Assembly: GCA_973895155.1 (NCBI GenBank)
Contig: OZ316896.1
Location: 7,895,539 to 7,959,538 of the forward strand
Direction: 5' to 3'
Length of the DNA: 64,000 bases
From: Marsupella aquatica
Taxonomy: Eukaryota; Plantae; Marchantiophyta
Below, one piece after another: positions 1 to 58,229 of this stretch; positions within the stretch are counted from its first letter, which is position 1; each line of letters starts with the position of its first letter. The notes beneath the pieces were generated by a model, which was given only the letters and a program-made list of their open reading frames with translations, was not told the origin of the DNA and ran no database searches. The translations under genes were made by a program, and so were the position numbers.

Positions 1-249
1 AGTCGGGATGCGTGGTGTTCGCATCCGCCATTAGTGCTATGTAATGAGGGTGGCCAGCGTGCTCTCCCTCTGGTTTGGATAGTAAGATTTGCCTGACTTT
101 GCTGTTGGCCCTTTCTCCTAATCTAAAGTATCAGTCTTCGGGTTGGGTGAAACTTATAGCTCCTAACCACTCAAAGAATATATGACAGCATAAACCTAAT
201 CCGGACCGGTATGTCATACCATATTCGCTCATAATTGTCCGAGCGAATG

Positions 250-750: not shown

Positions 751-759
751 TGCAAAACT

Positions 760-940
760 AAAAGAAGTGGACCCCCTGCGATCAGGCCCTTTTCCTGTTT
801 ACCCCTTGTTATTTCCATTTTACTATTAAAAGTTCCCTTATTACCGGTAATAATTATAATTATTAGTTCAAAATAAATAAAAATTACCCTTTGAGCGTTT
901 GCACGTCCTCCACGTATTAGTTAAGACTGAGGGCCTAGGG
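760..940 (+). mobile_element. MITE family 1, copy 1 (left end truncated)
   Basis: Near-identical to 1011-1212 and ends in TGAGGGCCTAGGG; the left TIR is missing. Confidence 0.8.
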
Positions 941-3146: not shown

Positions 3147-5689
3147 AGTCTTAGCAAGCACAGCAGGAGAAAACCACGAAGCTGCACAACAATGCCAGTA
3201 ATCTGCGTCGTCACGTCATATATTCTATCCTCAGGAGAAGTGAAGAAACTAGGATCAGAACCTCATGATTTAAGAGGACGTCTCATCCACTGCGAGCTAC
3301 GAGAGTCCCCGGTAGGATTGAGATCTATCACAGCTTCCATTCTCTGGTCCATCTGTAGTACAGTCTCCATGCGAGGTGCTGTTTTTTAACAATTGGATCA
3401 TATATGGTCTGCGATGAATTCAGGCAAGGATCTCGGAAGCTTTGAGGAATGAGGCCAACGGAAGCGTCATCGTCAACTCCAACGAATCCTGGAAAGGGTT
3501 CCAAGCGTACCGAGTCAGGTTCCACCTAGCTAGACTAGACTACTCCTTGTGCTGCGAACAAGGCAATGACAAGCGCTCGCCACCTGGTTCGGCCACCGCA
3601 ACTAGAAACTAGAAACTAGCTAGACAAATGCTTTTGTCAACTGCAACCATAGGCTAATACGATCATCAGATTTAAACCAAATCATCATCACCAAAGACAA
3701 CGATGAAATCGATGAGCACATTCCGCTAAAATATCGGACGGGGATTTCAATGGATGCAAATCTGAATTTTTTTTCGATCCGCCATCATCTCGTTTGTGAA
3801 AGCATTTAAAGTCAATGGTTGCAGCCAGCTGCTGGTCGTAACTAGCTACTCCCGTTAGACTTTGCCATAATGCCATGAGAGTCTGGAGTCTGAAGGCGCA
3901 TGTGCTGGGCTAAGTCAGCATCCTAAGTTTGACGCCGCAACATTTGACGTCGCTCTTCATTAATCCCCGCTTTAATTTTAAATTTGATCTACTGTAGCTA
4001 GGATCTTGGGGACAAATGAATAAGCTAAAAATAATCTGTCACCCGTGAACTTACAATTACCAAGGCGACTATTTATGGTCAAATTCCATTAAAAATATAT
4101 ATATCGAGCTGCAATTGTCGTGATCGATCTCTCCCTCCAATTTGCAATACAAAATTTGAGGATATTGTTTGCAGCCTAAGGACGAGGCCATGTCAACGAT
4201 GCGGAAAGCTGGGTAAGCCAAACAAACTACAGTGAGTTTCCTGCAGCTGCATGCTCGTAATTCTCTGTCGAGGGGGGGAGGGGGGGGCGGGGGGGGGGAG
4301 GCTTCCTGCCATGATCATCAAGGGCAAACAATGTTATCCACTTGTATGTTCTTTCAAATCCATCAAGAAATTAGACACAGGTCAGTCCCAACTTCTTCAT
4401 TGAATTCGGCCATTTTATTAAGGTCGATCTCGATCTTGAACCGGAAGCCGTCCTTCTCGTAGTCCTCATTGTCATGCAGCTGAATTTGTTTCTCTGAGAA
4501 ATATATGGCGTGCATATTTACTACTTATTGATCGACGTTCCACCGTCAGAAGGATTGTTGAATCATCTTTTGGAATCAGTTAGACGAGTAGATTGCTGGG
4601 CATTGTATGAGGTTGATCCGCATACATTCGATTTTAAACTTTCCTATGTACAAACGTAATCTGCTCCCTGCTGTAGTTGAACATGCATTTTGGAAGACGT
4701 TGGTTCAAGAACTGAAACGGTTTCTGACCTTGTGTCAAGTGAAAGAAGACCAGAAATTACAGTAGTAGAGACCGGCCAAGAAATCTGATCTTTCGACTCG
4801 ATTTGGTCTCTGCTTCGACTCTGAGTCCCTGGCTACGTCCGTCCACTCTCTTGAAGGTATTCGCAAACTCAGTTTCATTGCAAGGCCAGCGGAAGCTCTG
4901 GTTCACAGCAAACGCCTACACAGCTTGCTACACAGTCGACAGCCACTCCGGGCAAAGAGGTATCTGACCGCTCAATAAGCTTTTGCTGTTACCTTGCTTC
5001 ACTACTGTACCTAGGGGCGATTCCATGGTATCCTCACGTCTCACTGCAGGTTTCGGTTTGCGGAAGCTTTCGATGTTTAGCGGTTGGACTATCTCGGCGT
5101 AAGGGTTACTCTATTGATTGACTCTAGCAACTGAAAATTTCGAGATCCAGGACATGTACTCCCTTTGTTTCCTTAGTTATTCACAGAAGAATCGAAGATA
5201 ACATCGAATAGCAGAGTTTTCCCTGAATGAAATAACTTCCTTCCATTTGAGTGTAGCTTTGACTTTTTCAATCTGAATCTTGAATAATTGAATCACTAAT
5301 ATTGTCTGGCCCGGTTTGCTATCACATGAACAGGAACGTTGTTTGATTCATGAATGTCGTCTGAAACAGGTGAAAAATAATTAACTTTGGTAGAAGCCAT
5401 CATGCTGCGACAATAGCCTAGCTGGCGAAAAACAGGATTTCAACACATCTGCCGACAGCTCCTGTCCATAGCCACGAGTTCGAATCGAAAAATCTCCAGC
5501 TTGAATTGGAGTGCTCTCGACCTTATTGTATGCGTTCTAACGCGGGAGGCCATCAACATTCTTGGATCTCCAGTTAAGAGTGATTTTGCCAAAGGCTCTT
5601 CTGTCGAAACCCTTAGCCCATCGCCGGTGGCGACGTCTTCTAGATAAATACTTCAATTGTCATATATATCTTCAAGCCAACCGGGCGAG

Positions 5690-7397
5690 ATGAATAGTCG
5701 GAGTCTACCGTACAAAGAGAACGAGAACCCGTTTGCATACGATACAGAACAAGCTCAGACGGAGGGCAGACGGACGAATCGCGAAACTCCATTCTCCTTC
5801 TTTGGCGATGATCGGGCCGATGATACTACTACTACTGTGCCAAGAGTAACGGGAACCCGTGATTCAAACAGCTCCAAGGTAATCAGGCTACAACGATGGA
5901 ATATCGCACTCAGACTCGCGACGTGTGTTTTCTGTCTGACAACTATCCTTTTACTTGTATTGTCAAGACAGAGTAAGTCTGGAATACAGCTCACAAATGG
6001 AAACACGGGAAGAGGGACTGCGACGTACAAATTTAGCGGCACATTCAAGTACGTTCAATCTTCCTTGCTTCTCAACCTAAATATTGGGTCGTCTGAAGTT
6101 GTGCATCTACCATGTTTCAGCTTCGTCTTTGGATTCGATGGAAGAGATATGAGCATAACCGAAAATGGTCTGAAGACACCTTTTCATGAAAGTAAGAACT
6201 TATCTACTGAATAGACACAAAGTTATTGGTTTGAAATCCCCTTGTTGACGCTTGTGCTGTCTGGAATTGAACGACTATTCTGCAGGTTCCTCCTGTTAGT
6301 CTACTTTCTCGTATTGCTGTACGCATTGCTACTGTCAGGTCTTGGAGTAGTGATGTGGAAAAAGGGCCTAAGCGCGACAACTCCTCGTACCCTTATGTGG
6401 CCAGCCTTCGTCGTTAACTTGGTAAGCTGTCCAAACTTATTAGCTAGGCTGCCAACTCCAGTGAGAATGTTACGTTGATGTGGAAAGAAAGATTCTCGTC
6501 CAATTCACCTGATCATGAACCAAAACCATTCTTTGCGAAATAATGATAAGACTGCTCTCGGCCCAGGTTAGTAGTCAAACACCATAAGAGTGGATGACTT
6601 ACAAGTTCTGAAAACTAAGCTTAATGGGTCACAAACGAACCTTGTAGCTAAACTGTTCCCAAACTAAGATATCAATATGAATCCGTGCTCATTACGACTA
6701 CGTATATGTATGGTGGTTCCACCGTAGACAAAGCCCAATCGCGAGGAACAGGTGCCTTTAGTATCTGTAGTATCTATTACGTTGGGTCCCGTGAGTGTTT
6801 CATGCAACGGTTCTTCCTACAGTAATTGCAGTGCAGGGATCATCAGTTGCACTATGAATTTGGTAGTTGTAACTTTTGTGTCTGTAACCCTAAATCCAAA
6901 AAGTTTTGGACTATGAATTTGGTAGTTGTAACGTTTGGTGTCAATAATCCTAAACCCGTAACAACTACGGAGTTAAGTTGCATCAAATTACTAACTTTGA
7001 GACACCCTATTGGTCCACCTAATGGCTCCAAATTAATATTGATAACCCTAAACCCGTAACAACTACGGAGTTAAGTTGCATCAAATTACTAACTTTGAGA
7101 CACCTTATTGGTCCACCTAATGGCTCCAAATTAATATTGATGATTGATTTGAATTTGTACCTACTCCAGGTTACTACGGGCTTTTTACTTCTGGCATTCG
7201 CTGCTGCTGTGGCAGTGGAGGTGGTGGCCAGACAAGGGCTTGTGCTGGGTGACATACATTGGCAGGCAATTTGCCACTGGTTTAATTTTTTTTGCTTCAT
7301 CAATGAGCTTGGGTTAGCTGCTGCTGCGGTTGCCTACTTATGCCTCGCCGCAAGCACCAGTATTGACGCCTACTTCATCCACATCCGTGAGGATTAG
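5690..7397 (+). CDS. CASP-like (CASPL, DUF588/MARVEL superfamily) four-transmembrane protein; exons 5690-6048, 6286-6421, 7170-7397
   Basis: TM1 'IALRLATCVFCLTTILLLVLS'; 'ATYKFSGTFK|FLLLVY' spans a GT-AG intron; the last exon has the CASPL signature 'WQAICHWFNFFC'. The three exons join in frame, matching the usual 3-exon CASPL structure. Confidence 0.88.
6949..7141. repeat. ~98-bp tandem duplication in CASPL intron 2 (also a 60-bp-period duplication at ~6851-6950)
   Basis: CCTAAACCCGTAACAACTACGGAG...AATTAATATTGAT occurs at 6949 and again at 7047. Confidence 0.9.
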
Positions 7398-9402: not shown

Positions 9403-10684
9403 CTACAGCACATCACGATGTCTAGAGAAACTTTCCAAAGGAATCACTTTGGTAAATGCGTCAGCTGGGTTGAGTTTACCGTCTATCTTGACTAGCTCAA
9501 ACAAATTATCAGACAGAGCCTGTCTGATAAAATGGTACCTGACATCTATGTGCTTCACTCTACTGTCCATCACCTGGTTCACAGCAAGGTGGAGCGCACT
9601 CTGACTATCACAATGGAGCTTCACATTCCCCTGTGACAATCCCATTTCAGTGATAAGTCTATCCAACCAAATCGCTTCCTTCACTGCTTCCGCTGCTGCA
9701 ATATACTCTACTTTTGTAGTAGACTGAGCAATACACTTCTGCAAAGTAGACCTCCAACTTATGCATCCACCGCCAAGTGTGAACACATACCCTGTTGTTG
9801 ATCTCCTTTGGTCCAGATCTTGTCCATAGTCAGAATTTACATAGCCAATCAATGATCTAGAATTCTTTGCATTCGCATCAAATAGAAGACCATGATCCAC
9901 GGTACCCTTCAAGTACCTGATAATCCACTTCACTGCTTCCCAGTGTACCTTCTCTGGATTCGACATGTACGTGCTCACCTTGCCCATAGCCATGGCAAGA
10001 TCAGGTCTAGTGCAAGTCATCAAATACATGAGACTTCCCACTGCCTTATCATAAGGAACCTTTGACATCAGCCCCTTCTCCATCGCATCTGTGGGACAAA
10101 AAACTGATGACAATTTGAAGTGTGCAGCCAAAGGGGTACTTACTAGTTTACTATCCCCCGTGTTGAACCTAGCAATTACCTTCCTTGCATAACTACTCTG
10201 TGTCAACCATAGCTTACCAGCCTCCAAGTCCCTAGTGATCTCCATACCCAAAATCCTCTCTTAGTTGGCCCTAGGTCTTTCATCTTAAACTCTGCACTGA
10301 GCAGTACCTTAAGCTTAACAATTTCAGACCTGTTTCAGACCTATCCTTGGCCGCAATAAGCATGTCATTCACATAAAATACTAAAATAATGAACCCAAAG
10401 ACAACATTTTTCACCGGTTTCAAATATACACAAGGGTCAAACACACTCCTGTGAAAACCTTGTGACCGAATCCAATCATCAAACCGCTTGTTCCACTGTC
10501 TTGGTGACTGCTTCAACCCATACAAGGATTTCAGCAATCTGCAAACCAATTCCTCTTGTCTTCTCTTCACAAAACCTAGCGGCTATCTCATGAAGATCAC
10601 CTCTTCCAAGGTGCCATAGAGGAAAGCTGTGATAACATCCATCTGATCTAGCAGTAGACCAAACATTACAACAAGCACACACAA
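9403..10684 (-). pseudogene. Ty1/Copia pol: RT C-terminal part and RNase H
   Basis: Motifs LKSLYGLKQSPRQW, YVNDML, VGSLMYLMTCTRPDL, RRSTTGYVF, CDSQSA, KHIDVRYHFIR; contains frameshifts. Confidence 0.96.
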
Positions 10685-13600
10685 TGTGACACGGGTGATA
10701 TATCACTTAATCGAACATAGGTCCTAGATTAGGACTTATACGGTCGTTAGGACCGTAGCCGTAGCATAGAGTAGTACGAATAGCCATCTTTGCCATTATG
10801 AATAGGTTAGGAGTAGGTTAGTTGACTGAATGATTATGAATTAAGGGAAGAAAATTATTACGATCAGCCGAGATACGGTGGCAACGGCGGAGTAAAATTC
10901 TGTTAGGAGATCACGCTTGGACCGAGACACCCAACTTCGGGGCCATAATCAACAACCAAAACGGCCTTGCCTTCTCACGCTCGGGCTCACCCTGGCACCT
11001 CCATAAGAGCTGAGTCGATGGCGCCACGGCCCATTTGCTTATTCATACCTTTTGGAATTTGCGGACGCTGCCATTCACTCTTGCCTTTTGCTCAAATCAA
11101 GCTAACTTTTACAAGGAAATTATCGAAGGGTAAGAGCGGATTATGGCGGGATTTAGTCAGGGCGAGTAAGACCTCCACCAGCAAGCAAAATTGTCCGGCG
11201 GGGACGCAGACTCGACAAACCAGACTACAAAGGTTAGTATGACCCTTACAACCTTGGGATTTTGGACCTTATTTGGCGAGGTAGGTGCTAAGTTCTCCAA
11301 GACTTACTGGTACTCTTGCCCCGAGAAAGCCGCTTACGAACAAAGATACGCAAAGTTGGTGGCCAAGGTAGCACAGGTTAATTGTGAGAAGATAGCCATC
11401 ACCAAAGATTCCAGCTACAACGAGCTACGGGACTACATCACCGAGCTATATCTCCGAGAGGAGGGGCTTAGATCGGTAGCAGAGGCGATTCTTGAAGTCC
11501 CCGCAAAGTTCTTTAGGCTGAAGGGTAGCCAGAGGCTGACTCAAGCAGAGTTCGACAAGATCCCGGGTTATATCGACCAGCAGATTGCAGCCGAAAAGCG
11601 CCAAGAAGACATCAACAGACAACAGGAAGCGGCGTGTAATCTTATGTTTCTCGGGGAAAGCTCCAATGCCTTCAACTGGGATATGGCTACCCCGACGCCA
11701 TCCCCAGCCCCTCAGCCGATGACCACCGGCGTACCACCAAACCGGTCCCAAGTCCGTCCCGTGAACAACATTGAGTGTTCCTTGGGTTCCAAGCATGTTA
11801 GTCCGCAGCTTTAGCAGCATTCTCGGAAGCGGGCAAGGACGACGCCGGCCCCCAAACCAATGACGCAAACCAACGCTGCCCCTACACCTGCATCGGCCAA
11901 CCCGCCAACTAACCAGTCCTGACGATCCTTGGATAATCAACCGCCCAACTTATTACAGGTAAGCCACGTCCCCGAGGTAGTCTGGACAGCGATCAAGAAA
12001 CCCGACCACGCGAACTATCTCAAGGAGCATCAGTTGGAGCAGTTTGCTCACTTGCTATGGAGACCTAACGCAGCCAGACCAAGGGAGGTTTATGAGTTTA
12101 TCTCCAATTTTGACATCGATGCGGCGACCACCAAGGTTTCAGGGCAGACCTTATCACTTACGAAGTCAATTGGCATAGATCTTTTGTCTGCCAATCGGGC
12201 CGGTGTCGGTAGAACTTCGAATTCGGGATAAAGAGTATACATCCCGACACTTCAAACCCAAGGGTAAGAAAGACAACGAGTACAAGCAGGGGTCATGCAC
12301 CAACCTAGTCTGTATGGAGCGACTTAACTTCATACGGACTACCCTACACATGATTGAGCCACGATCCAAGATCTCCCTCTGTACGATCGTACAGGTGGAA
12401 CAATACAAAGGGCGGAATTGGGCCCAATTCTTTTGCCGTAGGTTCTTGGGGGAGCTTAGGCGGGCTCAAGGAGGTATGTCTATTGGGGGAAGGACCTACC
12501 TAGGAAGTCACATCGCCATCATCCTCGCCTGGTACAAGGCGCAACGGGAGACCAGGGGAAAGAATATGGCCACCTCAGCCCCGACTAGCGTCGCCCCCGC
12601 TACGGAGGAGGCTACCCCGAGCAAGCGGACCACTATGCCTTAGGCAAACCCCAAGCCTGTGGCCCCGACTAATACTCCGTCACCTCCTCCTGTTGAAATC
12701 CCGCCGCCCCCTTCCGTCGAGCCTCCGCTGCCCCCAGCTAGTACAACCACCCCCAATCCCTCCACCACCTGAAGAAACCTTCCCCTCCCCATTGCAGACT
12801 ATGGAGGAGCTTGCCTCCCCTCCCGAGGAACCACCAGTGCCCGAGAGGATGGAGGACTACCAAGTAGCCCCGAGGACCATGGCCTATGACCTGGTCCAAA
12901 ATTTTAGCCAGACTATGTCAGGGGAATTGGCGACGTACATCGGGCAACAGGTCTTGGCGTACTTCCAACCAGCCTTCTTCATGTTAGAGCACCAACCACG
13001 GATCGTAAGCCGCTCAGAGGAAGAACTCATGGCAAAGGGGAACGAGATTGGGTGCCTCCAAATGCTAGTGGAACACCTCGAATAGGAGGCTACCACCCGC
13101 CGTGAAGAGTTAGTCCGCACCATTGAACAACGGGAAGGACTCAACCAGGAGTTGAGCGCGGCGCAAGCAGATCTCAAGAAGCTGGACGACACTATGCTTC
13201 AGTTGCGCTCAAAATCCTTGGCTTGGGTTACCAGCCTGACCGACCTCAACAACCAATTCCTGCAGGCAGCTCAGCAGGTGGCTAGTCTCTCCGCCGAGCG
13301 AGATAAATTGCTGGTGCAAAACCAGACCCATCGTGACTCCATCGGCCAGCTCAGCCTAGAGGTAGCACGGCTCCAGACCGAGGCCGACAAAGCTATGAAC
13401 GAGGCAAAGGAGGCGGTACGGGATAACAAGGCCTTGCAGGACCGCATTACCCTGCTCATCAGCCAACGGGCAAGACCTGGACCCACCTTTGATCAAGGCG
13501 GCTTGAGGTCTTGCCCCGACAAGGGAACAAACCCTGGTCCGACCACAGCACGCATATAAGGGGTGGTTAGCGGAGGGTGGGAGCGAATGCCACGCGAGGC

Positions 13601-14553
13601 AGTTGAGTCAGCGGCATCTTTTTGATTAGGCTTAACGACAGAATAGCTATCATTAGACATCGATTAGCGGCACACTAGGAAGAATTAAGGCAGGATCAGT
13701 TAGGATCAGCCGATGTAGGATAGAATCCATCAACGGACTAGAATTTTGGTCAGTAGACTTAGCTACTGCCACCCTGATCAGCGCCCCTTGCCACTGACGG
13801 TCAACTGGTCAGAAGGAGTGCGGCCAGTTAGTCAGAAGGTAGTTAGTCAGTAGGCATTGCCCCGGGAGGTAGTATCTTCCGGCTCCCTTCCGCAAACGTA
13901 GTATTTAGGCTTCCCCTTCCGTTGTGGGAGGGGGAGAAGACTTAGTTCACCTTAGCGCTAGAAAAGGCGAGGCACGAGGAGTCCCGGCCTGAGCAAGGTC
14001 AGAGTGCCCTAAGGAGTGAGAGCTAGAGTCAAGCTTGCTGGGCAAGCGCAAGGCAGGGCCTCGTAGAGACAGGGCATCGACTGCCGTTAGGCCTGCTGAC
14101 CCCTTAGAAGTCGAGTCAACTATGTAAACCGATTCTTTGCTGAGTAAAATGTAGTCTTTTCTCTCTGATTCTATCGCGAGTAACTGGTGTTGTATGCATG
14201 CTTTGTCTGGGCAAAGGTGCCATTTGAAGGGCTGTACCTGGTGCGGACTAATGGTAGGGATTGCCTCGGGTTGCATGTCACAAGGTTCTAAGTCGCGTTG
14301 ATGGCTTGAAAGCCCCAAGCCGGGAGTTAGTCCAAGTCACTAACTGTGGGAATATTCCAGAGGTGGAAAACAAATATACCTATGACCAGTATGAGTTACG
14401 TAAGGATTATACCGGCAAGTATATCGACTTAGCCCGACTTAGGGCTAATCAGGACCACTACACACCTCCTTGCCCGAACCCTCACCCCTACTAGTGGTCG
14501 TGGTCGCCCCAGGGAACTAACTTGGATTTAAGGCCCGAGTTATAGGCGCAACA
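10685..14553 (+). mobile_element. L1: 3.9-kb coding solo-LTR-like element inserted in the Copia RT
   Basis: Termini TGTGACAC...GCGCAACA; 5-bp TSD CACAA (10680-10684 / 14554-14558). The Copia RT frame (KYSTIRLLC|VLVVMFG) rejoins across it. No gag/pol, PBS or terminal direct repeats seen. Confidence 0.88.
11239..13559 (+). pseudogene. L1 ORF: N-terminal helical region, PMD/Transposase_32-like domain, Pro-rich linker, coiled coil (disrupted)
   Basis: ORF pieces 11191-11814, 11929-12231, 12203-12643, 12693-13085, 13152-13559. The block 'YLKEHQLEQFAHLLW..EFISNFD..TKVSGQTLSLT..LHMIEPRSKIS..SHIAIILAWY' aligns by eye with the L2 and L3 proteins. Confidence 0.7.
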
Positions 14554-14558
14554 CACAA

Positions 14559-15533
14559 TAGCCGTATTGTTGAGTACTTAGCAATTGGTGAGAAGACCTC
14601 ATTGTAATCCACACCTTTTACCTGTGTGAATCCCTTGGCTACCAACTAGCCTTGTAGACCTTTGATCCACCTCCCGTAGACTGATCCTTCAGCTTGTATA
14701 TCCACTTGTTGTCCACCACTTGCTTCAGGCCCTTAGGCAGCTTAATAAGCTCCCAAGTTTTGTTGTCCTTCAGTGACTGCATCTCCGTTTGCATTGCTGC
14801 AGTCCACTTTTGCTTCTCCTTTGAAGCACTTGCCTCATGAAATGAAGAAGGTTCCCCTTCTTCCAAAATTAATGCATCACCTTCATCATCAGCCGCAAAA
14901 TTGTCCTCTTGCAGTTGAGATGAATCAACCCACTGTCCATACCTAGGAGGAGCGCGTACAGTGTGACCAGATGTTCTTCTAGCCAATGACTCCGGTTGAA
15001 TTGCGTCTATTGGTACAATTTAAAGCTCAGCAGCATCCACTTGTTTCTCACCAGCATCAACAAACTCCTCTTGTTCCTCTGGCATAGGAACCAACTTCAT
15101 GCTTGGAGCACCTCCTTCTCTCCGATCATGCACTTCATGATCAATCTCCCCCTCAACGAGATTCAGGATAGGAGATTTTCCTTTGTCAGTACGGGAGACC
15201 TGAGTATTCTCCCCCTCCTTCAATAATCTGGATTCATTGAAGGAAACATCCCTACTGACAACGAGCTTACAAGCAATAGGATCCCATAGCCTGTAGGCCT
15301 TCACACCACTCTAGTACCCAAGAAAAATACATTTCTTGGACATAGGATCCAACTTGGTCCTATTCTGCTTTGGTGTGAGAGCATATGCATCACTTCCAAA
15401 AATACCAAGCCATGATAGTCTGCTTGCCGCTTATAACGCATTTCAAATGGTATTTTGAAATTGATTGCACTAGAAGGAGAAAGATTTACCAAATAAGCTG
15501 CAGTATTGACAGCTTCTGCCCAAAATTCCTGTG
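14559..15533 (-). pseudogene. Copia pol: integrase C-terminus, linker and RT N-terminus
   Basis: FWAEAVNTAAYLVN, KAYRLWDP..VVSRDVSFNE, EPSSFHEA..WTAAMQTEMQSLKDNKTWEL, KWIYKLK. Confidence 0.95.
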
Positions 15534-15654
15534 CACTACAACACAAATGGGGTCTTTTGCGAAGCTACCACCTTCTCAATCAACAAAGAAACATGGGATA
15601 TATTTATGAACAATGCGAATCAATCCGCATCGCAATTTCTTCGCAAAATGCAAA

Positions 15655-15951
15655 CTCGGGGGTTTCACTTCCACAAAAATGGCATATCACGTGCGACGAA
15701 GGATAGGGTCATTTTATTGGTTCTAAGGGAAGACTTAAGAATTTTTGTAGAAGAACAATAGGGTCTTTTAAATTCAATTTTGAGACTTATAAGAACATTA
15801 GGGTCCTTTTAATCCAATTTTTAGAATATTCCAAGAATATTCCAACTTTATAGGGGTTAATAAATAAATTTTTTTTCTTACATTTTAGGGGGTCCGAGGC
15901 CTAAAAACGTCGCAGGCGATGGGGAGGTCCCCATATAGTGAGACCCCTGAG
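15655..15951 (+). mobile_element. MITE family 2, copy 1
   Basis: TIR CTCGGGGGTTTCACT...AGTGAGACCCCTGAG; perfect 8-bp TSD AATGCAAA. Confidence 0.93.
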
Positions 15952-16594
15952 AATGCAAAGCTAAAGACTTTGCTTCCGTACTTTCGCAACGATTTTGCAA
16001 TGTGCAAAATTTAGTTTATCGCACACTTGCGATTTAGTGTGATCGCACATTCTTGGCAATATTGCAAAATAAAACAAATTGCAAACGCTTCACACATTTG
16101 CGACCTCGCAAGGATTGCGACCTCATTGCGACATGGTTGGCATCCGTTTCTGTTGCGATTCAGATTGTTTCACAAATAGTTTGCGAAGGTTGCATATTGA
16201 CAAAACTTAGATGGTTTATGCTTTGCATATTTGAGATACATCGGTCATCGCAAGTTTCCCATTCGGAGAGAATGGCAATGTTGAGAAGCATTTTGAATGG
16301 CAATATTGCAATTTTGTGAGGATTGGTCATTTTCGATGACTCTAATTTCTTAAGTATTTTGCAAATGCTTCACGCTTGAGATTTAGGGTTTAATTAATGG
16401 TTACTAGGATACATTGGAGGTAGGGTATACCCAAAAATATGTATAATGAAGAGGCAAAATGCCTGAAGGTACAAAAATTAGGGTTTGAAAGAACCCCACC
16501 TATATAGATAGGGTGGTGCACATATGCATAACTACAGCTAACAAGCATAGCATACCCATATGTAGCTCTAGAAGGCTACCTCCACCAACAACAT

Positions 16595-18585
16595 CTAGAA
16601 TGGGGTCTTCCTACTCCTCTTTTTGGTCCGGGCCCTCTCCCCTCCTCGACGGGTCACAGCCACCCGAGCGGGCACGGGCTCTGGCTCCGGCTCTGGCTCT
16701 ACCTCCCCTGTACCCTCCTCGAGGCCACCATCCTCCTGCCCCTCCTTGTCCTCCTTGTCCTCATCCTCATCCCCTGGCTCAGGTGCTGATCCACCTCTAG
16801 GACGTGAACTACTACCACCTCCAGAGGATGTAACCTGCCTGCTACTACGATGACTATGACTATTGCGCTCATCCACATCGCTGCTGCTAACATCAGAGCC
16901 TGGCTCCTCAGCCCCCTCCGCATCCGTCTCATCGTCATCCTACTTGAAGCATGCAATTAGGAGAGGTCACCAATAAAAGAAGGAAAACTTAATAAAACCT
17001 TGCATAATGAAGACATGCACACAATTTAGAAAATTAAAGTGTTGAGACTTACACTAGCCAATGCTGCATCCGTGATCTCAAAGAGATGCTTTGCCCCAAA
17101 CTTTGCCCCTATCTTCATCTCTTCAAGGTGATTTTGTGGCGATACCTGTTATACTATCAAAGGCCACAATTTAACCAACCCACGTAATTAAGCCTAAAGT
17201 GACCCAAATTAATGCACATAATTCACACCCCACACAAGACTTTAACACTTAGAAAAATTTCAAAAAAATTTGAATTTGCGAATCGATGTACTTCGTAAAA
17301 TATGAAGCTCCATCAGTTGCGAAGCTGTTGTGATATTTTTTGCAAAGCGAACTTCATCGCAAAGCCTTCGGCAAAAATGTTCATGATTGGCTTTGCAAAG
17401 CTTTTGCAAAGCAATCCTCTTTGCAAGAGCTTCGCAAAGCCTGTTATGCAATAGATTAAAAAAAAGGTACCTTGTGCGTGTCAGAGCATATTAGGGCAAG
17501 GCAAAAGCAAGAGGATAGGAAAGAGGTTGGGGCATTGCACATCACAATATATTGAGGAAAGAGGCCAAGTAGTAGGGAAAGAGGAGGACACTCACAAAGG
17601 CTGCCTTTAGGCCGGGGAGTCCACCTTGCCCCATTCTGTGAGTGACCTTGGAACGGCTGGTCACTCGTGCAGCAACTTGGGAGAACTTCTTGGGTGGCTG
17701 ACCCTCTTCGTCCACAATTTGCTGCATGAGTTCTACTTGCTGCTCCAGGGGCTTCAAATCGCGGGTTGTCTTCCCGACCTCCTTTGCTTGGGTGAGCTCG
17801 TCTAACTTCTCCTTTGCTGCTTGCAGGTCCCTACTGGCCCTGATTTGCACCTCAACCTGGTAGAAGGCCTTCCACATGTCTTATGAGAATTGCAGAGGCC
17901 TCTTCAACCTCTTGTAGTTGTCAAGCTCCTTCAGGTAGGCCCTGATCTTCTTCCTGTCATGATATCGAGCCTGAGACATTGAATTTGAAATTCTGTCTGC
18001 AATCCATGTTTCATCCAGGTCTGGTCCATTTCGAAATGCATCTTTGACTTGTGTGGTCACTCTCTTCTGATCCTCACTGGAAAGCTTTCCCCATTCAACA
18101 CCTCTAGGGAAGTTAATGGCCACAATGTGCTTTATGGTGCTCTTAGCCCCTGTGTAAGCAAGCTCCAAAGGCAGGCCATGGGCCTCTACAAGAAGAATAG
18201 GGAGCTTCTTTTGCTCCTCCTCCTTCTTCTGCTGCTCCTCCCTGCTCTTTAGAATCTCATCCCTCTCCTCCTTTCTTCTCTTTTTCTCTAGGGCCTGAGG
18301 AGAGAGGACTCTTGCCTTGGCGCTCTCCTCCTTCTTCCTCTTCTTTGCTTTTCCCTTCTCTTTAGCTGCCTTCCTTGCTTCCTCATCTCTTGCAGCCTGC
18401 CCTGCTTCCAGTCCAGTTTGCAAAGCTTGCCCCAAGATTGCAATCAAGGAGGCCATCCCTGCAGGAGTACTCAAATCCAAGGTACTCAACTCTGCAGCCG
18501 TCACATGCTGAGATACCATGGCAATCAATCTATTCCTCTCCTCCTCTCCATTGTCCCCGCTGCCATTGCCACTACCTGATGCCAT
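16595..18585 (-). pseudogene. CACTA-A second gene, TnpA/Transposase_24-like; exons ~18585-17596, 17145-17053 and a last exon ending at 16595
   Basis: ORFs 17881-18585 and 17542-17877 are in frame across one TAA. Contains the HRMGQGGLPGLKAAF motif followed by a GTGAGT donor and ends KKRSRKTPF. Homologous to the genes in CACTA-B and -C. The TnpA label is inferred from the HxxG motif and context. Confidence 0.7.
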
Positions 18586-19435
18586 AGCTCCTCACCCAAG
18601 ACACCTTGAATCCTCTCTCCCTTTTTCCAATGCCCTTCACCTCGCTCCCTCCCTTGCGCTTTGATCGCGCCGCGAGCGCTAATGAGCCCCGACCCGCCCC
18701 TTTCGGATTTCAAATCGCGTAAAAACAGGCATTGTGAAGCTTTCCGCATCGCAATTTGAGAACCCATGAGCTTTGCAAACACCTTCTCAAAGTTGCAAAG
18801 ACGTCAACTGCGACGCTATTAGTATCGCAACAACATCGCAACTTACTTTAAATTGAATTTGCGAAGCGTTTGCGAAGCGGATAGTATCACATTCTAATGT
18901 TTTAATTGCGATGATGTTTGCGAAGCATCAGGCTTTGGTATAACTTGGCAAACTGAGTGCCATATTTCCACAAGTGCCCATTTTGCATTTTTGGTAAGGT
19001 TTATTGCCACACCCCAATCACTCACTTGTTATGGATGGTTTGTTGAATGTTTAAGGATTTTTTGGACGAGATGATTTGTATGCATATATGCAGGTTTTTG
19101 GGGTTTTGGGTATGATTGATTAACTAAGATGAGTGCTTGTTACCTTTTTTATTGTAAAATAGTCTAGGTTGTTAGATAGTTTAAATGATTAAGAGGGGTT
19201 TGGGTTATTGTTACTTTGTAGGTTTGGAAGGGTTTAACATATTACATTAATTAGTTTTGGAGGGGAATGAGGTTTTAAGATGGGTTAGGTAATTAGAAGG
19301 GGTTTAGGTTCGTTGTTTGGACATATGATAAAGAAGGGAGGGCAAACACAAATTTATTAGGAGGGGTTTGTGGTGTTGGGGTTTAGGGATGACATAAGTA
19401 ATTAGCTAGGAGGGGTTTGGGGTTTAGGGAATGAT

Positions 19436-22400
19436 TGTCACGCCATCGGCCTAGTCCTTAGGCCGATCTACATCTAAGACGGACACTTCCCTTGTTAGTA
19501 TTCGAGTTCAGGCAGGGAGGGACGTGCAGAGTGCGTATAATTCTCCCAAACTAGCGCTAAGTGCGCATACATTTACTTACAAGCATGCTTAGGTATACTT
19601 TGTGTTCCGTCGCTGGAACGTACCTTAGTCAACACGGGGTCGATCCCGGCTTACGGACTTCTAAGCCTTTGTGTTACCGCCTTCGATCCGGATCCATTAG
19701 TACAAGTGCTCAACCCCGGCTCGCAACACCATACCCGTAACCTGCACCCTGTGCATGCTTGGCATAACGTGTTTGGCCTAGCATTGATACTTGCACACGA
19801 GACTCATACATGCATTCATACATAAACATAAATCTCAATTTACACAAAGGAATTGAGGGGAAAAGATTTCATTCATATATGATCATACACTTACGATTGG
19901 GTGACCCGACACCTCGTGAATGAACGGGCCGAAGGCCGAGGGGTATACACTACAACGGAGCCCGGCTCTGCACTCGCCCGACGAGCTTAGTTGTATACCC
20001 TCCCCTTGGCACTCCGGCACTTCACCGAGTTCGGGACTCCCCGCGCGTACCGCAAATGGCCAACTTCTGAGTCTAAAATCCCCCCCTTGCCTCTACCAGG
20101 GGGCTGCTAAATACTAAGGGCTGAGGACCAACCCGGCCTCGTGCCTGAATCTACGCTAACTTATATCCTTGCTAAGCTGGTTACGGCTTGTCCTATTAGT
20201 CTAACCTATTCTACACAGGCTGGCTAATGTGTCAGCGCCGCTATCTTTTGGCCGGCACTTGTCCTAACAGCCTGTTTTAGCTACTTCTAGTTCTATTCTA
20301 ATCCTAACTCTTCGCTAATGCCTGGTGCGCTTGCCAGAGCCGTCCGAGTGGGAGAGGCCATCCCGTTGCCTACGGAGTCTATTGTTGTCCATCTTGAGGA
20401 GCTGGACTTGGTCTAGTAGAGATTCATTCTCTCGCTTTGCCGCGTCCGTCTCCTCAGCTGCCTCCTGGCATGCCTCTTCCAATTGCTGGGCTTTGCTTGT
20501 CAGCTTGTCCACCATTTGGGTCTGCTTCTTGGCTTTGGTTTGAAGCCGCGCTACTTTGGCCTGTAGGGTGGCAATCTCCGCAGTGTCATGCTAGGCCTGT
20601 TCTTCGGCCTCCTCCAGGTCTTTTCTGCCAGATGACAGTTTGATTCTTCAAACTGTCAACCTGGGTCCGGAGCCGTGCAATCTCGGCCTCCTTCCCAGCT
20701 TTGGCCTGTTTGGCTAAGGTGGTAAGGGCATGCGCATTTGCTAACAACTCATCGGCGGCTGCAACCTTGGGTTGTAGTTGCAGAAGCTCAGCCTCTTGAG
20801 TCTCAATTTTTCCCTTTAGGTACACAGACTCAACCCAGTATCGTTCTATCCTCTGAAGGGCCTCCGACTGGGCCCGGCCTGCCTTTACTACGGTAACCAA
20901 CTCCTGGTCAAAGAAGTAGGCTACCTTCCGGGCCATGAACTCCCCGATATCCCAATCAATCTGTTGGGAGAAATCTCCCAAAAGCCCGTTCAGAAATGTA
21001 CCCGGTACGAAGAGTTCCGGGTGGTCCAGGTTGTGCCCGTCCGGAGTTGGGCATGGGCAGACGTCAACCCTCACGGGAGCCGGGGTAGTGACATCCAGCA
21101 CTAGGGATGTAGTGTTGGAAGGGGCTGGAGTGCCCTCCTCCATCATCGTGCTGTCCTCTGGAATAGCCACCGGTGGGTCTTCTAGACCCTTGGGCTCTGG
21201 CAAGGCCTCCACCGCCCCGACTTCTGCACTCGGCCTGGTCTGGTTGATCGCGTCTAAGGTGGCGATCACTGCCTCGTCCGGTACCTCTTTGGCCACGGCT
21301 ACGGCTACTTGTGGAGGTGGGGTGGGTGAGGCCTGCGTGGCCGCCAGACTTTGGGCCTTGGGTTGAGGCCGTCTCTCCAAGGCCGGGAAGACCCACCTAG
21401 TCGAAACCAACTTAGTTACGTTGGCCCGGGGAAGGGTTGGTCGATCAAACCGGGCGTACCACTTGAGAATGATCTCGATGTGGCTCACAAAATATGCCTT
21501 CCCGCCAATGTACAGCGCCTTCCTTTGCCGTTCCATCTCTTCATGGAACTTCTTAGCAAAGTACGACGCCCACTTCCTAGGCCGATAGTTCTCGACCTGG
21601 ATAACCTGGGCAGCGGAGATCTCGTCCCGGGGTTCCATCATGTGGAGGTCGTACCTATGGAACTCCAGCCACTCGGCTATCTCGGGGATGAGGCAGGTCC
21701 TCATCACGAACCCATTGTCCACTGACCCCTCGGAGGGAAAACTCAAGGATTGGTACTTGGCTCCTTTGCCCCCAGGAGCCCGTGATTCAACTCGTTGATC
21801 TCCCTTGGGTAGCCCGTAGATCATCCTGAGCCGCTCCTCTGTGAGGGAAATATTTCTCCCCCGTAGCCGAGTCTGCTGACAGACGTCGTCATAATTCTTG
21901 ACGAACTTTGTCATGTACCTGTAGGTGTTCCAGGGGAGAGAGGCGAGGTGCTCGAACCCCTGAGTCTTCAAGTACACCGCATGTTTGGGGTGGAGGATGT
22001 TCTTATGCACGTTTTCCCCCATGCGGTGCATTGTTACCTTGGCTGCGGCTACCGTGGCCATGGTTAACCTGGATACAGCTGCGGGTTCTTTCCTCTTCTT
22101 TCCCCGAGACTGGCTCCCGTGATGGCTTGGAGAGGGTGACATTTCCCCATCCTCCTGATTGGGTATGGGTAGTGCCACCGCCATTAGTATTGGGGCCGGG
22201 GCGGCTATGGTCACCGTGTTGTCCACCGGAGCCGGTACTCAGGTCTGGGCCTAGGGAGGGGGCGATGTAGTGCTGGCTCCCTGGGTGCTCGCTCCTCTGG
22301 GCCATCTGAGCAGGGGTGGGGTAACCTCGTTGTTGTCGCTGAGGTCCACAGTGTTGACGACGGATCACACTTGTATGGGCGGGGCGACCGGCGGTGGGGA

Positions 22401-23420
22401 CCGGCTAGGCTGAGGCGAAGCCTGAGCCTGAGTCTGAGCCTGAGCTGGTGTTGGTGCGGGTATGGGCACGGGCTTGGCTGGGCCAGCACTGGTGGTTGAT
22501 GGTCTGGTTCCCATGAAGTTTTGCAGGTGCCGGTAGAGGTTTTCTAAAGCAATTGTAGGCGGTCTTGTCGACCGGGTAGTGTTGAACTCGTTGTTGATGA
22601 TGGCCTGGACCCGAGCGGGAATGTGGTCGAAGTGGTGCTGATGTAAGTCAATCATGCCCGGGATAGTGAAGATCGCATCCGGAAGCCAAAGCAATGCCTC
22701 CCAGAAGCCTATGTATTTGGCCCCGTCGAAGAAGTACCCTGATATTCCTTCGGGTCGGTAAAGCTCGCTCTGGGATGGGTAATCAAAGTTAAGGAGGTAG
22801 TGGTGGCGGCCTATTAGGAGGATGGCTCTCTCGTACTCGCGTTCGATTTCGTATCGGCGCGGGTTGGCATGTTTCAATAAGTCGGCCAAGTGCCCCCCGA
22901 TAGACAGGAACTAGGTCCAGAATTGTATGGCCAAACTGGAAAGGATCATGTGTGACATTCAGAGGCGATAGAAGGCGACTAAGGATGGGCGAGATAATTG
23001 GGGTCGAAGCTGGCGCGTGGACTGAAGAATTGGTGCACTGCAAAGGATCGGCCCCCTTTTATACCCTGAGAGCTCGTCGGTCGCCTGACGCCTCCTCGTC
23101 GCTTATAGGCCGAGCCTTTCACGCTTGCAGTGTACCGGCCACTCTGCCAGTCCGGGTCAACGCGTGTCAGTAGCCGCCTCCCGGAGTTTGTTATACGGAC
23201 CCGAGGGGGGCCCATTACACGCTCACAACCCGGGCGTGCAAATGATGACCCGCCGCCAGTCCGAACACGAATGCCCCTTATTGACTAATGATTTCCTACT
23301 CATAATGGCTACCTAAATACTGTTGTTATGCTAATAATTATGGCCTAAGATACCCCTAACGCACGTGCTAGGCGTGGTTAGGCCGAATCACTCATTACCC
23401 GTCGTACCGGCGGCATCACA
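19436..23420 (-). mobile_element. L2: 4.0-kb coding solo-LTR-like element
   Basis: Termini TGTCACGCC...GGCATCACA; 5-bp TSD ATGAT (19431-19435 / 23421-23425). No gag/pol or internal LTR pair. Confidence 0.9.
20315..22889 (-). pseudogene. L2 ORF: PMD/Transposase_32-like domain plus coiled coil (frameshifted)
   Basis: ORFs 22365-22889, 20586-22226 (546 aa) and 20315-20515; motif 'YLKTQGFEHLASLPW..FVKNYD..RLRGRNISLTEERLRMIYGLPKG'. Confidence 0.72.
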
Positions 23421-24017
23421 ATGATGATATAAGTAATTAGGAGGGGTGTTGGGGTTTAGGGATGAGATAAGTAATTTACTAGGATGGGTTTGGGGTTTTC
23501 AAACACGATAAGTAATTAAGAGGGGTTGGGGGTTTAGGGAATGATGAGATAAGTAATTAGGAGGGGTTTTGGGGTTTAGGGATGAGATAAGTAATTTACT
23601 AGGAGGGGTTTGGGGTTTTCAAATAGGATAAGTAATTAAGAGGGGTTTGGGGTTTAGGGAATGATGAGATAAGTAATTAGGAGGGGTGTTGGAGTTTAGG
23701 GATGAGATAAGTAATTTACTAGGAGGGGTTTGGGGTTTTCAGATAGGATAAGTAATTAAGAGGGGTTTGGGGTTTAGGGAATGATGAGATAAGTAATTAG
23801 GAGGGGTGTTGGAGTTTAGGGATGAGATAAGTAATTTACTAGGAGGGGTTGGGGTTTTCAAAAAGGATAAGTAATTAAGAGGGGTTTGGGGTTTAGGGAA
23901 GTGTGATGCCTAGCCAGGAATCACTAGGCCGGTTTACATGGTAAAAGCAGGAGTGTACCCTGGAAACACCTTAGTATAGTAACAAGACAAGGAAAATATA
24001 AACAATTAAGGGTGACT

Positions 24018-27000
24018 ATGGAACCCGGGCCGAGGCCGGAAGAAAGGACGCCGGGGGAGAGAACACGATTAGGGTTAGGGCGCGCTAAGCGTCGGTGGCT
24101 AGGGGTGACCAACGGGTGGGAATACCAGTGGAGGAGAGGGGTAAGGACCGCTCGCGAGGAATAGTGGCTCATTTGCAAGCACAAACTGAGCAGACAACTA
24201 CGGGAGGCCAAATACTGTCAGCTGCTTAGGCAAGCACTCTGGGTGGGAACAGATACCAATGATCGACTCAAGGAGGGTATGAGCAACGTCAATCAAGCGG
24301 CACATTTTTGGGGATGCCTGTTCAAACGGGCAGGTGAGTACGTCAGGACTTACGAGGACGAAGAATCGGAGAGAGCAGCTCGAGAATGGCAGGAGCTTGC
24401 TCGGCTCTGGGAACTGTAGAAGACGGCTTTCTTAGGAGGAGAACTTATCAAGGCCAAGTTCTTGTGGACTCCTACTGCCAATCAGCTCGACCACCTTCTG
24501 TTTTGCGAAAATAGAATCGTTAGCATCCGGGAAGCCATCAATCGCTGCAACGACCTACACTGGGAGTTGAAGGGTAGCACGGAAGGGTGGACAAGGGCAA
24601 CCTTGCTAGGAGAAACATCCACGGCAGCCGAGATGAAGAGGAAAGGAAGCAACAATGAAGAGGCCACCCCGGCAAAAAGAACGAGGTCGGCGGCACCAAG
24701 GAAGCCAGCAGAGCAGCAAAGCAGGAGGCAGGGAGAAGCCGAAGAGGAAGAGGTCAATCCCATCAATGCCATTCCAACAAACGATGACACCTGGAAAGGC
24801 TGGGCAGCGACCCTACCGGAGGAAGTGCAATTACACTTTGCACGGGAGGAGGATGCATGCTTTACGGCCATGCAGACCAAGAAGTACCAGGGCTTCATGG
24901 CCGGATCCGGCTTGGAAGCCTTCGTAAGATTACCATGGCTGAAGCCGGAGGTGCCGGACTCAGACTTATTAGAATTTGTGGGATCATGGGAACCCGAGAC
25001 CAATTCCACGAGGGTGTATGGGAAGGATTTCTATCTCACTCCCCGGGTGATTGCCGAGGTGTTTGGCTTGCCGATGGGTAATAAGACCAAGGTTGATACC
25101 AGGAAGACCTTACCTGACAAGGAGTTCCGGTCATTCCTAGGGCCATCAACAAAGAATGGCTTCTTCCGGAACACCTGCACCAACCCGCACATCGGAGAGA
25201 TGATCAATTTCTTACGAGTGACCATGCATTGTAACTTGCCGAGGGCAGAGATCGGCAAGGCTCAGGTCTACCTGGCAGAAAGGCCAGACCCAAGCCGGGA
25301 TTACAACGGGTACCTCCTCAACCAACTAAAGAAGATCTTGAAGGAGGAACAGCAGGTGATCGGCGTGGGAAGCGTGTCCCGGCTTGGCTATCACATGCCG
25401 TTGTTGTGCCGGTATGCCAGAAGTCAAATCTTTGCCCCAGTACTTCCCCTATCGGCAAGGGCACCGGAGGAAGTTCTGGAGCAGAGGCCGGCAACAAAAG
25501 AGCCCAACCAACCTATCAGTCCTACGATCGAGCAGGTGTTTCGGCCAAGGAAAGAAGACTTGCCGATGCAGCAATCAGGCATGCAGAATCTGCTGAAAAT
25601 GCTGGAGAAGGAGAGAACGGCACCAGCAACGACAACGGCACCGGTACAGGACACTGCCCCAGAGGCCGGCCTAAGCCGACTCAGGAGGGGAAACCCCTTT
25701 ACCGGAACCAAGGAGAGAAGGAGGCCGGAACACAAGCCGGGAGTGCGAATGTATGTGGGAGCCTCAAGCCCCGAATCGGAGGCAAAGTAGCCTAAGGCTC
25801 CTTCCCGCGGAGAGCAAAGGGAGAGGACAGCCTCAAACCCAGAGGAGGAACAAGGGCCAGTGATCTGTGAGGCCATTTTCACAGGTGGACCAGGGGAACA
25901 GAGGGGGAAGCTGGGAGTCCAAGCAATGGAGGAGACGGTGGAGGACTACAGCAATGATAACTCTGGCTATGGGTCGGATCATCATGTTCCAGGAGTAAGG
26001 ACCTGTGGCCGATTTATCCCCACGCTTCCAAGAGTAGTTTGAGGGGACCCCACCCAGCAGAGTAGCCCCGAGTCTCCCCCACCAGAGGTTGCTCCCCCGA
26101 GCTTTGACGGCATAAAGCAGACGGCAGAAGACTTTTAGGAGAGACTCAGGCCGGGAGGAAGAGTGGGCAGCCCTGGCTAGGGAGAAAGATTTACCAGGAG
26201 GAGATTGGCCGGAGGACATCAGGCAGCTTGCCAAAAAAAGAAGCAACCCTCTTGCCACCATAGAAGAAATCCGCAAGGCGGCTTGGGAACAGAGGCCGAG
26301 ATGGTTGATGCCGATGAATTCTACTTACTCCACCTATGCTAAGGATAGAGCCATGGAGTACAGGGAGATGTGTGGGGACCTGGCGCTCAGCATCTTTGGG
26401 GAGGAGTTGGAGCAGGGACCTTTCTTCTAGAGGGAGAGGTTGGAGAAGCATCGATTAGAAGAAGCAGTGGCTTTGGAGAGAAGCAAAAAGGACGAGGTCA
26501 TCCGGCGGCTTAGGGAGAAGGAAGCCGAGGTGGAAGTCCTGCAGGCGGCCAAGAAAGCCCAAGATGAGCTACGGATTAAGCGGCATGAGCTAAACATCAT
26601 GCAGGGGCAGTTGGATACCGCTCAGTCTGACAATCAGATTATCAAAGATAAACTGACTCGGACCCAAGGAGAGTTGGCCGGCGCAGTCAAGGAAAGAGAG
26701 AAATGGAAGCGGGAGCTGAGGGACGCAGAGGAGGCCCACTTAACCGCCAACAACCGGGCCATGGCGGAGACTCAGAGAAGGGAGAGGGCGTTGAAAGGAG
26801 AGATCGAAGATATCCACGGAGCCCTGGAGCAGAAGGAAGCAAAGTTAGGGAAATCATATCAAGGGATTATTGCGCTGCAGCAGGAGCTTGCATCCTTGAC
26901 GGCCAGCTTCAAGGCTGACCTGCGTGAAAAGGACGACCAGCTTGACCAGACTTATGCCAAGATGAATAAGATGGAGTCTGTGGTCATAGCAGAGCTCGAC

Positions 27001-28033
27001 CAGTAGCTAAGAGCAACCCAAGAGCTCGGGGGTTTCACTTCCACAAAAATGGCATATCACGTGCGACGAAGGATAGGGTCATTTTATTGGTTCTAAGGAA
27101 AGACTTACGAATTTTTGTAGAAGAACAATAGGGTGTCTTTTAAATTCAATTTTGAGACTTATAAGAACATTAGGGTCTTTTTAATCCAATTTTTAGAATA
27201 TTCCAAGAATATTCCAACTTTATAGGGGTTAAAAAATAAAAAAAAATTCTTACATTTTAGGGGGTCCGAGGCCTAAAAACGTCGCAGGCAATAGGGAGGT
27301 CCCCATATAGTGAGACCCCTGAGCCCAAGAGGAGAGGGCTACCTTAAAGAAAGAATTGGAGGAAGCCGAAAAGGAGCTGGAGGAGGCGCGCAAGGACCTG
27401 GACGAGACCCAGGAGGAGTTGAAGGAAATCACAAGGAAGATGGAGAACCTACAGCGGTGGGCCGACAACCAAACAGAGCGGCTGAAGAAACAAGCCGTAG
27501 TATTTAAATGCTTGGCTTCATCAGGTCCAACTCCAATTGGGGCAACCCAGTTACCAGGGGTAGTATTGGCCGAAGGGCAAGCCGAGACACTCACCCTGGT
27601 GCCGGAGGTAAGTGGCAAGGGGAAGGAACCGGCTGTCGAAATAGGGAAGAAGAAGAAGCGGAAACCTTCTAGGTCTGGGAGTTATACGGCTTCTCAAGCC
27701 GTTGTGACCGAGAAGGTAAACCCGGCACCAACCTCCGACATCGACACGGCGGTGGGTCCACCAGTCCTAGGAAGTGGGGATGGCCAGGCCGAGGCCGGGA
27801 CAACCAGTAATAAAGTTGAGGTACCGGATCCTCCACTAGAACATGTCGGGGAGGCCGTAGCCGTATCGGAGGCCGTGGCCGATGCTAAGGCCAAAGCCGA
27901 GGGTGGACCCAATCAGGCCAATGAAGAGTTGACTCGGTCAGGGGCAGGTAATCTGTCAGAGGACGGACCAACGGCAGTGGCTGCGGAGGAAGCGTTGGGG
28001 GCGTCCATTGAGGACCAGCCACCAGTTTCGTGA
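24018..28033 (+). pseudogene. L3 ORF, reconstructs to ~1230 aa: PMD/Transposase_32-like domain, long coiled coil, disordered tail
   Basis: Pieces 24462-25790, 25860-26042, 26440-27006 and 27356-28033 join after allowing for in-frame stops, a small insertion near 26150 and the MITE. Motif 'GLEAFVRLPW..LLEFVGSWEPETNSTRVYGKDFYLTPRVIAEVFGLPMG'. Confidence 0.75.
27025..27323 (+). mobile_element. MITE family 2, copy 2
   Basis: Same TIR; 8-bp TSD CCCAAGAG. The empty site is visible in L4 at ~63833-63840. Confidence 0.95.
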
Positions 28034-29991: not shown

Positions 29992-30813
29992 GTATCCAAT
30001 AGGCTTAGACCTGCAGGACCAGCACCATATGTACCATCACAGGCAGTTGTAGATGCTATAGGCCAAGCCTTTCCACGTGTCTTCAATGGTCTAAGGGTAG
30101 GGGCTACCAATGTTGAAGGGGAAGTTGAGGAAGAGCCAGTAGTCCCAAGAGGGAGAAATCGGTCAAAGAGGAGGCCAAGAGGGGCCACCGATGCATATAA
30201 GTGTGTGGTTGAGGGTAGGTGGGGTAATTGTGAGTTCACAGGAAGATGTGTTCCTATTATCACGGATTGGGATCCTACAACTCTTGGGTTGCCAAACAAT
30301 CTGGCCCATGGTGAGCAGGTAGAAGTTTGGGGGAGACGTTGGGTTGTCAAACCCTCCACACTTGGAGACAGACATGGGTATGGAGTTTTTGCTTGTGAGG
30401 ACATCATAGTGGACTATGAGGTTGGTAGAGGTGGCCGTAGTGTAGAGGGACCTACTTTGTTTCCATATGGTGGACCCATCTACAAGAAGAGGCATTGGAA
30501 CATGATCCTCACACAACACCCTGAGTGGAAGACATATGCATTGGAGATGGATACTCATGAGGCCAACACTAGGTGCTATAGTGATCAGCGAGTGATAGAT
30601 GGGGACCCAATTCGAACTGGAAATATTGCTGGTTTTATTAATAGTACCGTGGGGTCTCAGCCTAAGCGTAGGCGGAACTGTGAGTGGGTATTCATTGAGG
30701 GTCCCCCACCGGCACCATATGGTCAAAGTTATCATCATGACCATTGTCTAGTTGTAGCTACCAGGACCATTTTAGCTGGTGATGAGTTGTTTACTCACTA
30801 TGAGTGGGATTAG
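29992..30813 (+). CDS. SET-domain exon of CACTA-A
   Basis: Open from the AG acceptor (29990-29991). SET motifs: VKPSTL..HGYGVFA, FPYGG, Y.L..D, IDG..GNIAGFINS, NCEW, VATRTILAGDELFTHYEW. Confidence 0.9.
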   Translation, partial: VSNRLRPAGPAPYVPSQAVVDAIGQAFPRVFNGLRVGATNVEGEVEEEPVVPRGRNRSKRRPRGATDAYKCVVEGRWGNCEFTGRCVPIITDWDPTTLGLPNNLAHGEQVEVWGRRWVVKPSTLGDRHGYGVFACEDIIVDYEVGRGGRSVEGPTLFPYGGPIYKKRHWNMILTQHPEWKTYALEMDTHEANTRCYSDQRVIDGDPIRTGNIAGFINSTVGSQPKRRRNCEWVFIEGPPPAPYGQSYHHDHCLVVATRTILAGDELFTHYEWD

Positions 30814-35700: not shown

Positions 35701-36152
35701 AACCTATTAGCTTCGCACAATATTGTGAAGTATAAATAGTTGCAAGTTAGCGAAGCCAGTTGATTCGCAAAGTTGAGAACCCATTGGCATCACAATTACC
35801 GATGGTGTGTTATTCACAAAGTGTTCAGAAGTTGCTTCTTGACAAGCTTGAAAATGTTTTGCAAAGAGAGTTGTTTGAAAAGTTTGTAGAATGGAAATGT
35901 TTGAGAGAGTTTCTTTACAAGATGGAGAATGCATGTGTTTAGGTTACAGCTAGGGTTTTCAAAAAGGTGGCATGCATGAGGATAGCTTTGGAAACGGCTA
36001 GGGTTGCATATATAACAATGAGATGAAATTTCAAAGTCCAATTAAGTGTTTGTAAAACAAAAGAAGAAAATTAATATGTTAATATAAATAAAACCATGAT
36101 AGTTAGTTTAGGGTCAAATTCTGGGCCCACAACAAGTTTTACTACTAGTGCA

Positions 36153-58221: not shown

Positions 58222-58229
58222 TGTATCTT

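Follow-up and report, generated by a model that had tools for sequence, protein, structure and literature searches.

A liverwort branch of the PMD/VANC/Transposase_32 superfamily encoded in TG...CA elements of Marsupella aquatica

Some plant DNA transposons counter host silencing in a sequence-specific manner by means of VANC proteins, which have been characterised. VANC21, which is encoded beside the MuDR transposase in the Mutator-like element VANDAL21 of Arabidopsis, recognises a motif of nine bases in the element that encodes it and brings about methylation loss (PMC5735166). VANC is described as dicot-specific and as probably captured from MAIN-like host genes (PMC13547354), and also as structurally similar to PMD-C/MAIN (bioRxiv 2024.09.27.615353, PMC13547354), which brings PMD (PF10536, described from angiosperms), MAIN/MAIL1 and the gypsy PMD-A of Ogre into the same structural superfamily. 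Gypsy retrotransposons are known to encode both PMD and Transposase_32 proteins in extra open reading frames (ORFs) (PMC5418596, PMC6317226, PMC11728184): gypsy-encoded PMD-A (PMC5418596) is found in 57% of Ogre elements (PMC6317226), and the Transposase_32 family, related to Athila ORF1, is a retrotransposon accessory ORF (PMC11728184). The roles of such extra ORFs are called unknown (PMC7264820), and the ancestry of gypsy versus genic PMD fully open (PMC5418596). Here we describe four related genes, each located in a discrete unit (L1 to L4), in a 64,000-nucleotide stretch (‘the window’) of contig OZ316896.1 from the liverwort Marsupella aquatica. Their products form a branch from liverworts within the PMD/VANC/Transposase_32 superfamily and fall outside all three Pfam families considered below, with an unusual carrier position and an extra domain.

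A block of about 193 amino acids is common to all four proteins, much as the original prediction had proposed from alignment by eye. It is located at 11962-12535 (+ strand) in L1, with one frame change near 12166-12180, and is open at 21456-22031 (- strand) in L2, 24837-25415 (+) in L3 and 61651-62229 (+) in L4. The copies align significantly between families in tblastn searches (E 6e-25 for L2-L1, 1e-16 for L2-L3 and 3e-8 for L3-L1), and their between-family local alignment scores stand 28-55 standard deviations above those of 1000 shuffles. A profile built from 59 relatives, with the window’s own rows excluded, recovered L2 (E 2.8e-56), L3 (5.1e-42), L4 (2.4e-40) and, in two frames, L1 (2e-12 and 1.2e-35), and outside these four sites gave nothing in the window below E 0.9; the relatives were originally found via a window profile, so the test is not fully independent. 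The expectation that the families would lack obvious DNA similarity was confirmed, as they share only scraps of 31-35 nucleotides, whereas L3 and L4 are 92% identical. The motifs N.(F/Y)....C, H...PR..I and (I/V)G......H are present in all four blocks and GLP.G in three (the L1 variant is CLPIG). The pattern T..DV...GLP..G is a signature of PMD; it does not typify these proteins, since T..DV is found in none of the four blocks.

A full HMMER search identified 85 relatives at E<=0.001; word-index searches had returned nothing for the L2 block (156 candidates) or for a five-row alignment (2065 candidates). Eleven of the 30 relative clusters that were looked up carry an organism name, and all are liverworts (ten Calypogeia fissa, one Riccia sorocarpa). 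No window protein matched PF10536 or Transposase_32 (PF20167) in scans at E<=1 and E<=10, none of the 85 relatives matched PF10536 at E<=0.01, and neither window proteins nor relatives matched DUF1985/DUF287 in Pfam. Seven of the 85 relatives do match PF20167 (E 1.6e-7 to 6e-3, best 31.8 bits), none of them reaching its 45-bit cut-off, and an hhalign comparison of 54 core rows with 12 ‘bridge’ proteins, a group itself sub-threshold for PF20167, gave a probability of 97.9 (E 4.7e-13 over 160 columns). Atlas clusters of PMD and DUF1985 scored 0.84, where block scores below 0.9 are leads only. Sequence searches of the PDB found nothing real (T-cell-receptor rows were noise), viral contigs held no relative of protein P0012, no RNA datasets were listed among the sequencing runs searched, and one metagenome locus (L001) was rejected as a chance match to bacterial-looking DNA.

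When 47 of the 64 rows (those shorter than 115 residues were dropped) are placed in a tree rooted at its midpoint, L1 and L2 are placed apart from L3 and L4, and a Transposase_32-leaning group is set apart; the deep nodes lack support, and we read no sequence of events from them. The Transposase_32-leaning group is joined by a divergent pair (P0036, P0042, P0096), of which one is annotated in Calypogeia fissa; it could represent a domesticated host copy. In the Riccia sorocarpa protein (P0076) the block lies behind a weak DDE_Tnp_4 match, which may reflect a gene-model fusion or a second type of carrier.

A structural model of the block, calculated from the L2 sequence after a first model from five sequences had proved unusable (pLDDT 43), matched the fold of VANC21 (PDB 9LNJ/9LNK), and no viral structure matched it. 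On this modelling, the fold link to VANC21 is very probable. The proposed PMD/Transposase_32 identity thus stands at the level of the superfamily, through the profile bridge and the VANC21 match, and falls at the level of the family, where PF10536 and PF20167 find nothing in the window proteins. Among solved structures, the nearest relative is an anti-silencing protein of a transposon rather than a host silencer.

The block forms part of a longer protein, in which an N-terminal domain is followed by a low-complexity linker with a terminal run of K/R residues, the block, a proline-rich linker and a coiled coil. The first of these, a second shared domain of about 105 residues that had previously gone unnoticed, matches no Pfam family; a profile of five hand-picked relatives located it at 11245-11559 (+) in L1 (E 9.6e-13), at 22611-22934 (-) in L2 (E 4.5e-11, in the frame of the block, with stops) and at 24291-24593 (+) in L3 (E 1.6e-5, one stop), and in L4 as weak pieces only. 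The proline-rich linker and long coiled coil that had been described behind the block were both recovered. Proline makes up 27% of that linker in L1, 17% in L2 and 13% in L3, and a crude custom heptad score found long coiled-coil stretches in all four proteins and in neither of two control blocks (L1 helical and coiled-coil region, 12774-13556, +, with one internal stop; L2 equivalent, 20318-21002, -, split across two frames; L3, 26431-27520, +, broken by a 300-bp repeat; L4, 63247-63999, +). Intact relatives P0109 (906 residues) and P0093 (787 residues) carry both domains and the coiled-coil tail in a single frame. The alignment of L2 with P0109 covers residues 211-805, shows 30% identity and requires no intron.

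We put forward with middling confidence, on the basis of the modelled fold, that the L1-L4 proteins acted as sequence-specific DNA-binding anti-silencing factors for their own families, with a VANC21-like central domain. Taken separately, the predicted DNA-binding role of the block is fairly probable, and the anti-silencing role has about even odds or slightly less. In such a mechanism, the K/R patch before the block would serve as a nuclear signal, the block would bind short words that are scattered along the element, oligomerisation would be the task of the coiled coil, and binding would protect the promoter of a long terminal repeat (LTR) from host silencing; as the gene would lie within the LTR, a solo LTR would retain gene, promoter and binding sites after loss of the internal region.

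Because a VANC-like block would imply that each element carries its own word, enriched words were sought against 300 shuffles (synonymous-codon shuffles for coding sequence, dinucleotide shuffles for the rest) using a maximum statistic. ACTAACT in L1 (6 observed, 0.4 expected), AGGCCGA in L2 (9 observed, 1.2 expected) and AAGCCG in L3 (19 observed, 4.5 expected) were each reached in 0 of 300 shuffles, and of ten tests on five sets of control sequence, taken from CACTA, gypsy and copia elements, a single one came up (P 0.033). The sites occur on both strands, in every phase and also in non-coding parts; in the non-coding ends alone enrichment is borderline (P 0.02-0.05, uncorrected, 12 tests). 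These words lend weak support to a putative family-specific binding.

Several observations weigh against the anti-silencing proposal. The identity of the block to VANC21 is 10-11%, with an rmsd of 4 A and a Foldseek E of 0.35, and a shared fold proves no function, being found also in host PMD proteins and in Athila extra ORFs, for neither of which an anti-silencing role has been demonstrated. In L4 no word is enriched (P 0.40), and of the 11 L3 sites it retains 6; the words exceed expectation 4-8-fold (one about 15-fold), those of L2 and L3 partly overlap, they are dispersed rather than arranged in tandem arrays as in VANDAL, and they may be a compositional habit. All four window genes are broken by stops or frame changes. 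Neither a full-length parent nor a primer-binding site or polypurine tract was seen within the 64-kb window, and the plant extra ORFs described in PMC7264820, PMC11963269 and PMC6317226 are located between the LTRs, in the internal region, rather than within an LTR.

It is also conceivable, and rather less probable, that a protein of this superfamily fold serves a different retrotransposon step (particle assembly, nuclear import or integration tethering), in the manner of the extra ORFs known from Athila, Ogre and Retand. The nearest sequence family to the block is indeed Transposase_32, found in an Athila extra ORF; extra ORFs, whose function is called unknown (PMC7264820), often encode nuclear signals and long coiled coils; and a targeting factor could explain why all four inserts lie inside other transposons. 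The sole solved structure with this fold, however, is a DNA-bound anti-silencing factor, and three of the four elements have an enriched word of their own. The Athila ORF lies in the internal 3' region, whereas the gene described here lies inside a unit without gag-pol.

All four units start with TGT, and the three complete ones end with ACA and are flanked by 5-bp target duplications: L1 (10685-14553, +, 3869 bp, duplication CACAA), L2 (19436-23420, -, 3985 bp, ATGAT, with a TATAAA 358 bases from its gene-sense start) and L3 (23902-28940, +, 5039 bp including a later 300-bp insert, GGAAG). L4 (60699-64000, +) is the 92% identical partner of L3 and runs off the window. The same scan for ends and duplications returned four further chance-looking pairs; the ends are also supported by repeat comparison, contig depth and nesting. 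The inverted ends are short and imperfect (7-9 bases), and one layout recurs in three unrelated families: a leader of 0.4-0.55 kb, one gene occupying about two thirds of the unit, and a trailer of 0.9-1.0 kb. Within the units, self-comparison at word size 7 found no internal direct repeat (LTR) pair, Pfam found no gag-pol, and there was no transposase frame. For L2, summed contig depth in three of four runs was 48-323 in the bins on either side and 410-240,000 within the element, and for some contigs the match breaks off precisely at 19436 or 23420 although the record extends further; L2 is a repeated unit with sharp ends, and the depth is not usable as a copy number. In run X4 (19300-23560) one contig joins the L2 end to an L2-internal position, as if a copy had inserted into a copy.

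Since TG...CA ends, a 5-bp duplication and a length of 4-5 kb fit solo LTRs, L1-L4 are probably solo LTRs of three gypsy-type (non-chromoviral) families whose parent is unseen. In size, ends, duplication and lack of gag-pol they are like the solo LTRs of the giant-LTR gypsy Ogre; here, by contrast, one selected gene fills about two thirds of the unit. The Ogre ORF presumably lies outside the LTR. It is unlikely that the units are instead complete, non-autonomous TG...CA elements, moved in trans with this gene as cargo, as might be suggested by the single layout in three unrelated families, the short inverted ends, the lack of an internal region in all three complete copies and the unseen parent. 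The duplication, the TG...CA and the 7-9-base imperfect inverted ends are the usual signature of LTR integration (PMC6317226), the sizes fit known giant LTRs of 1.9-6.5 kb (PMC6431247), and without an LTR pair inside an RNA route would lack its repeats. Two other identities were rejected: one in which L4 would be the 3' LTR belonging to the gypsy element upstream of it (there is no purine tract, and L4 cuts the RT region), and a CACTA or Mutator identity for L1-L4, whose ends and duplication length differ.

The dN/dS comparison of L3 with L4 suggested earlier was carried out, and shows past purifying selection on the gene: values are 0.22 in the N-terminal domain, 0.22 in the block and 0.10 in the coiled coil, all below simulated neutrality (P<=0.01), and 0.47 in the linker, which is not. 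Neutrality was simulated because transitions dominate the L3-L4 changes (174 of 221), giving neutral medians of 0.48-0.69. That the elements captured a PMD-like fragment from the host and have carried it neutrally, as the four broken copies and the linker value might suggest, is very improbable. This selection largely refutes it, and the retention of the same two domains and coil in three families without DNA similarity, the 85 relatives and the intron-free L2 alignment also speak against it.

The window is plant DNA composed almost entirely of transposons nested in one another; a single CASP-like fragment of a host gene lies near 5650-6400, and there are no tRNA genes. L1 is flanked by pieces of a copia pol region and lies beside a copia reverse transcriptase (RT)/RNase H frame at 9406-10260; L2 and L3 both entered a host 120-bp tandem array (23421-23901), which continues before 19436 and after 28940; and L4 starts inside the RT region of a gypsy element (58193-60698, +) with a gag bearing two zinc knuckles and protease-like and RT frames, which L4 cuts and which we take to be Athila-like in its RT wording. 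A 300-bp repeat (15655-15952, 27025-27323 and 52189-52486, with a weaker copy near 47127) is 91-95% identical between copies and has longer flanking duplications; the second copy interrupts the L3 coiled coil. Broken coiled-coil frames at 1-760 (-) run off the window start, possibly as the tail of a fifth such element, and the block profile finds nothing there.

SET-domain frames lie beside CACTA transposase genes at 29992-30810 (+), 39572-40243 (-) and 51299-52213 (+), two of them with Pfam SET scores above the cut-off (27.1 and 24.9 bits) and the third without a Pfam match. Candidate CACTA elements span 15534-57603, 35398-45404 and 45651-56672 (3-bp duplications GTG, GTT and TAT; other chance pairs were also found), and the outermost would enclose L2, L3 and the two inner candidates. 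They contain related small helical proteins without significant Pfam match (17884-18591, -; 42981-43454, +; 48634-49437, -), possibly a second CACTA gene. The original prediction placed the L1-L4 proteins in the same locus as these SET-bearing elements; a joint system of the two was rejected, as nested insertion accounts for the co-location, which is no evidence for such a system.

Compared with VANC21, then, the genes described here are carried by TG...CA units with a 5-bp duplication and no transposase, their candidate words are dispersed rather than in tandem arrays, their products have an additional N-terminal domain, and their named relatives are liverworts, whereas VANC is described as dicot-specific; compared with PMD, T..DV and any PF10536 match are absent. 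In the literature covered, from which most subscription papers fell outside the search, nothing described a plant LTR with an ORF of its own, or liverwort elements that encode this fold. The broadest form of the proposal, that liverwort retrotransposons carry a VANC-type anti-silencing gene in the LTR with a family-specific word throughout it, which would turn every solo LTR into an autonomous anti-silencing cassette, and that the PMD/VANC fold was encoded by transposons before seed plants arose, is speculative and, taken whole, unlikely to hold in full. A diverse, selected, Pfam-invisible family of this fold in liverwort transposons provides a deep branch against which the ancestry of PMD and VANC can be tested, and offers a candidate function for the extra ORFs of retrotransposons. 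Solo LTRs would be more than inert scars, and would go on acting in trans as genes, if the gene truly lies inside the LTR. New protein-motif pairs for sequence-specific epigenome work might follow, and, if the broad proposal is true, retrotransposons would become a candidate source of both VANC and MAIN/MAIL1.
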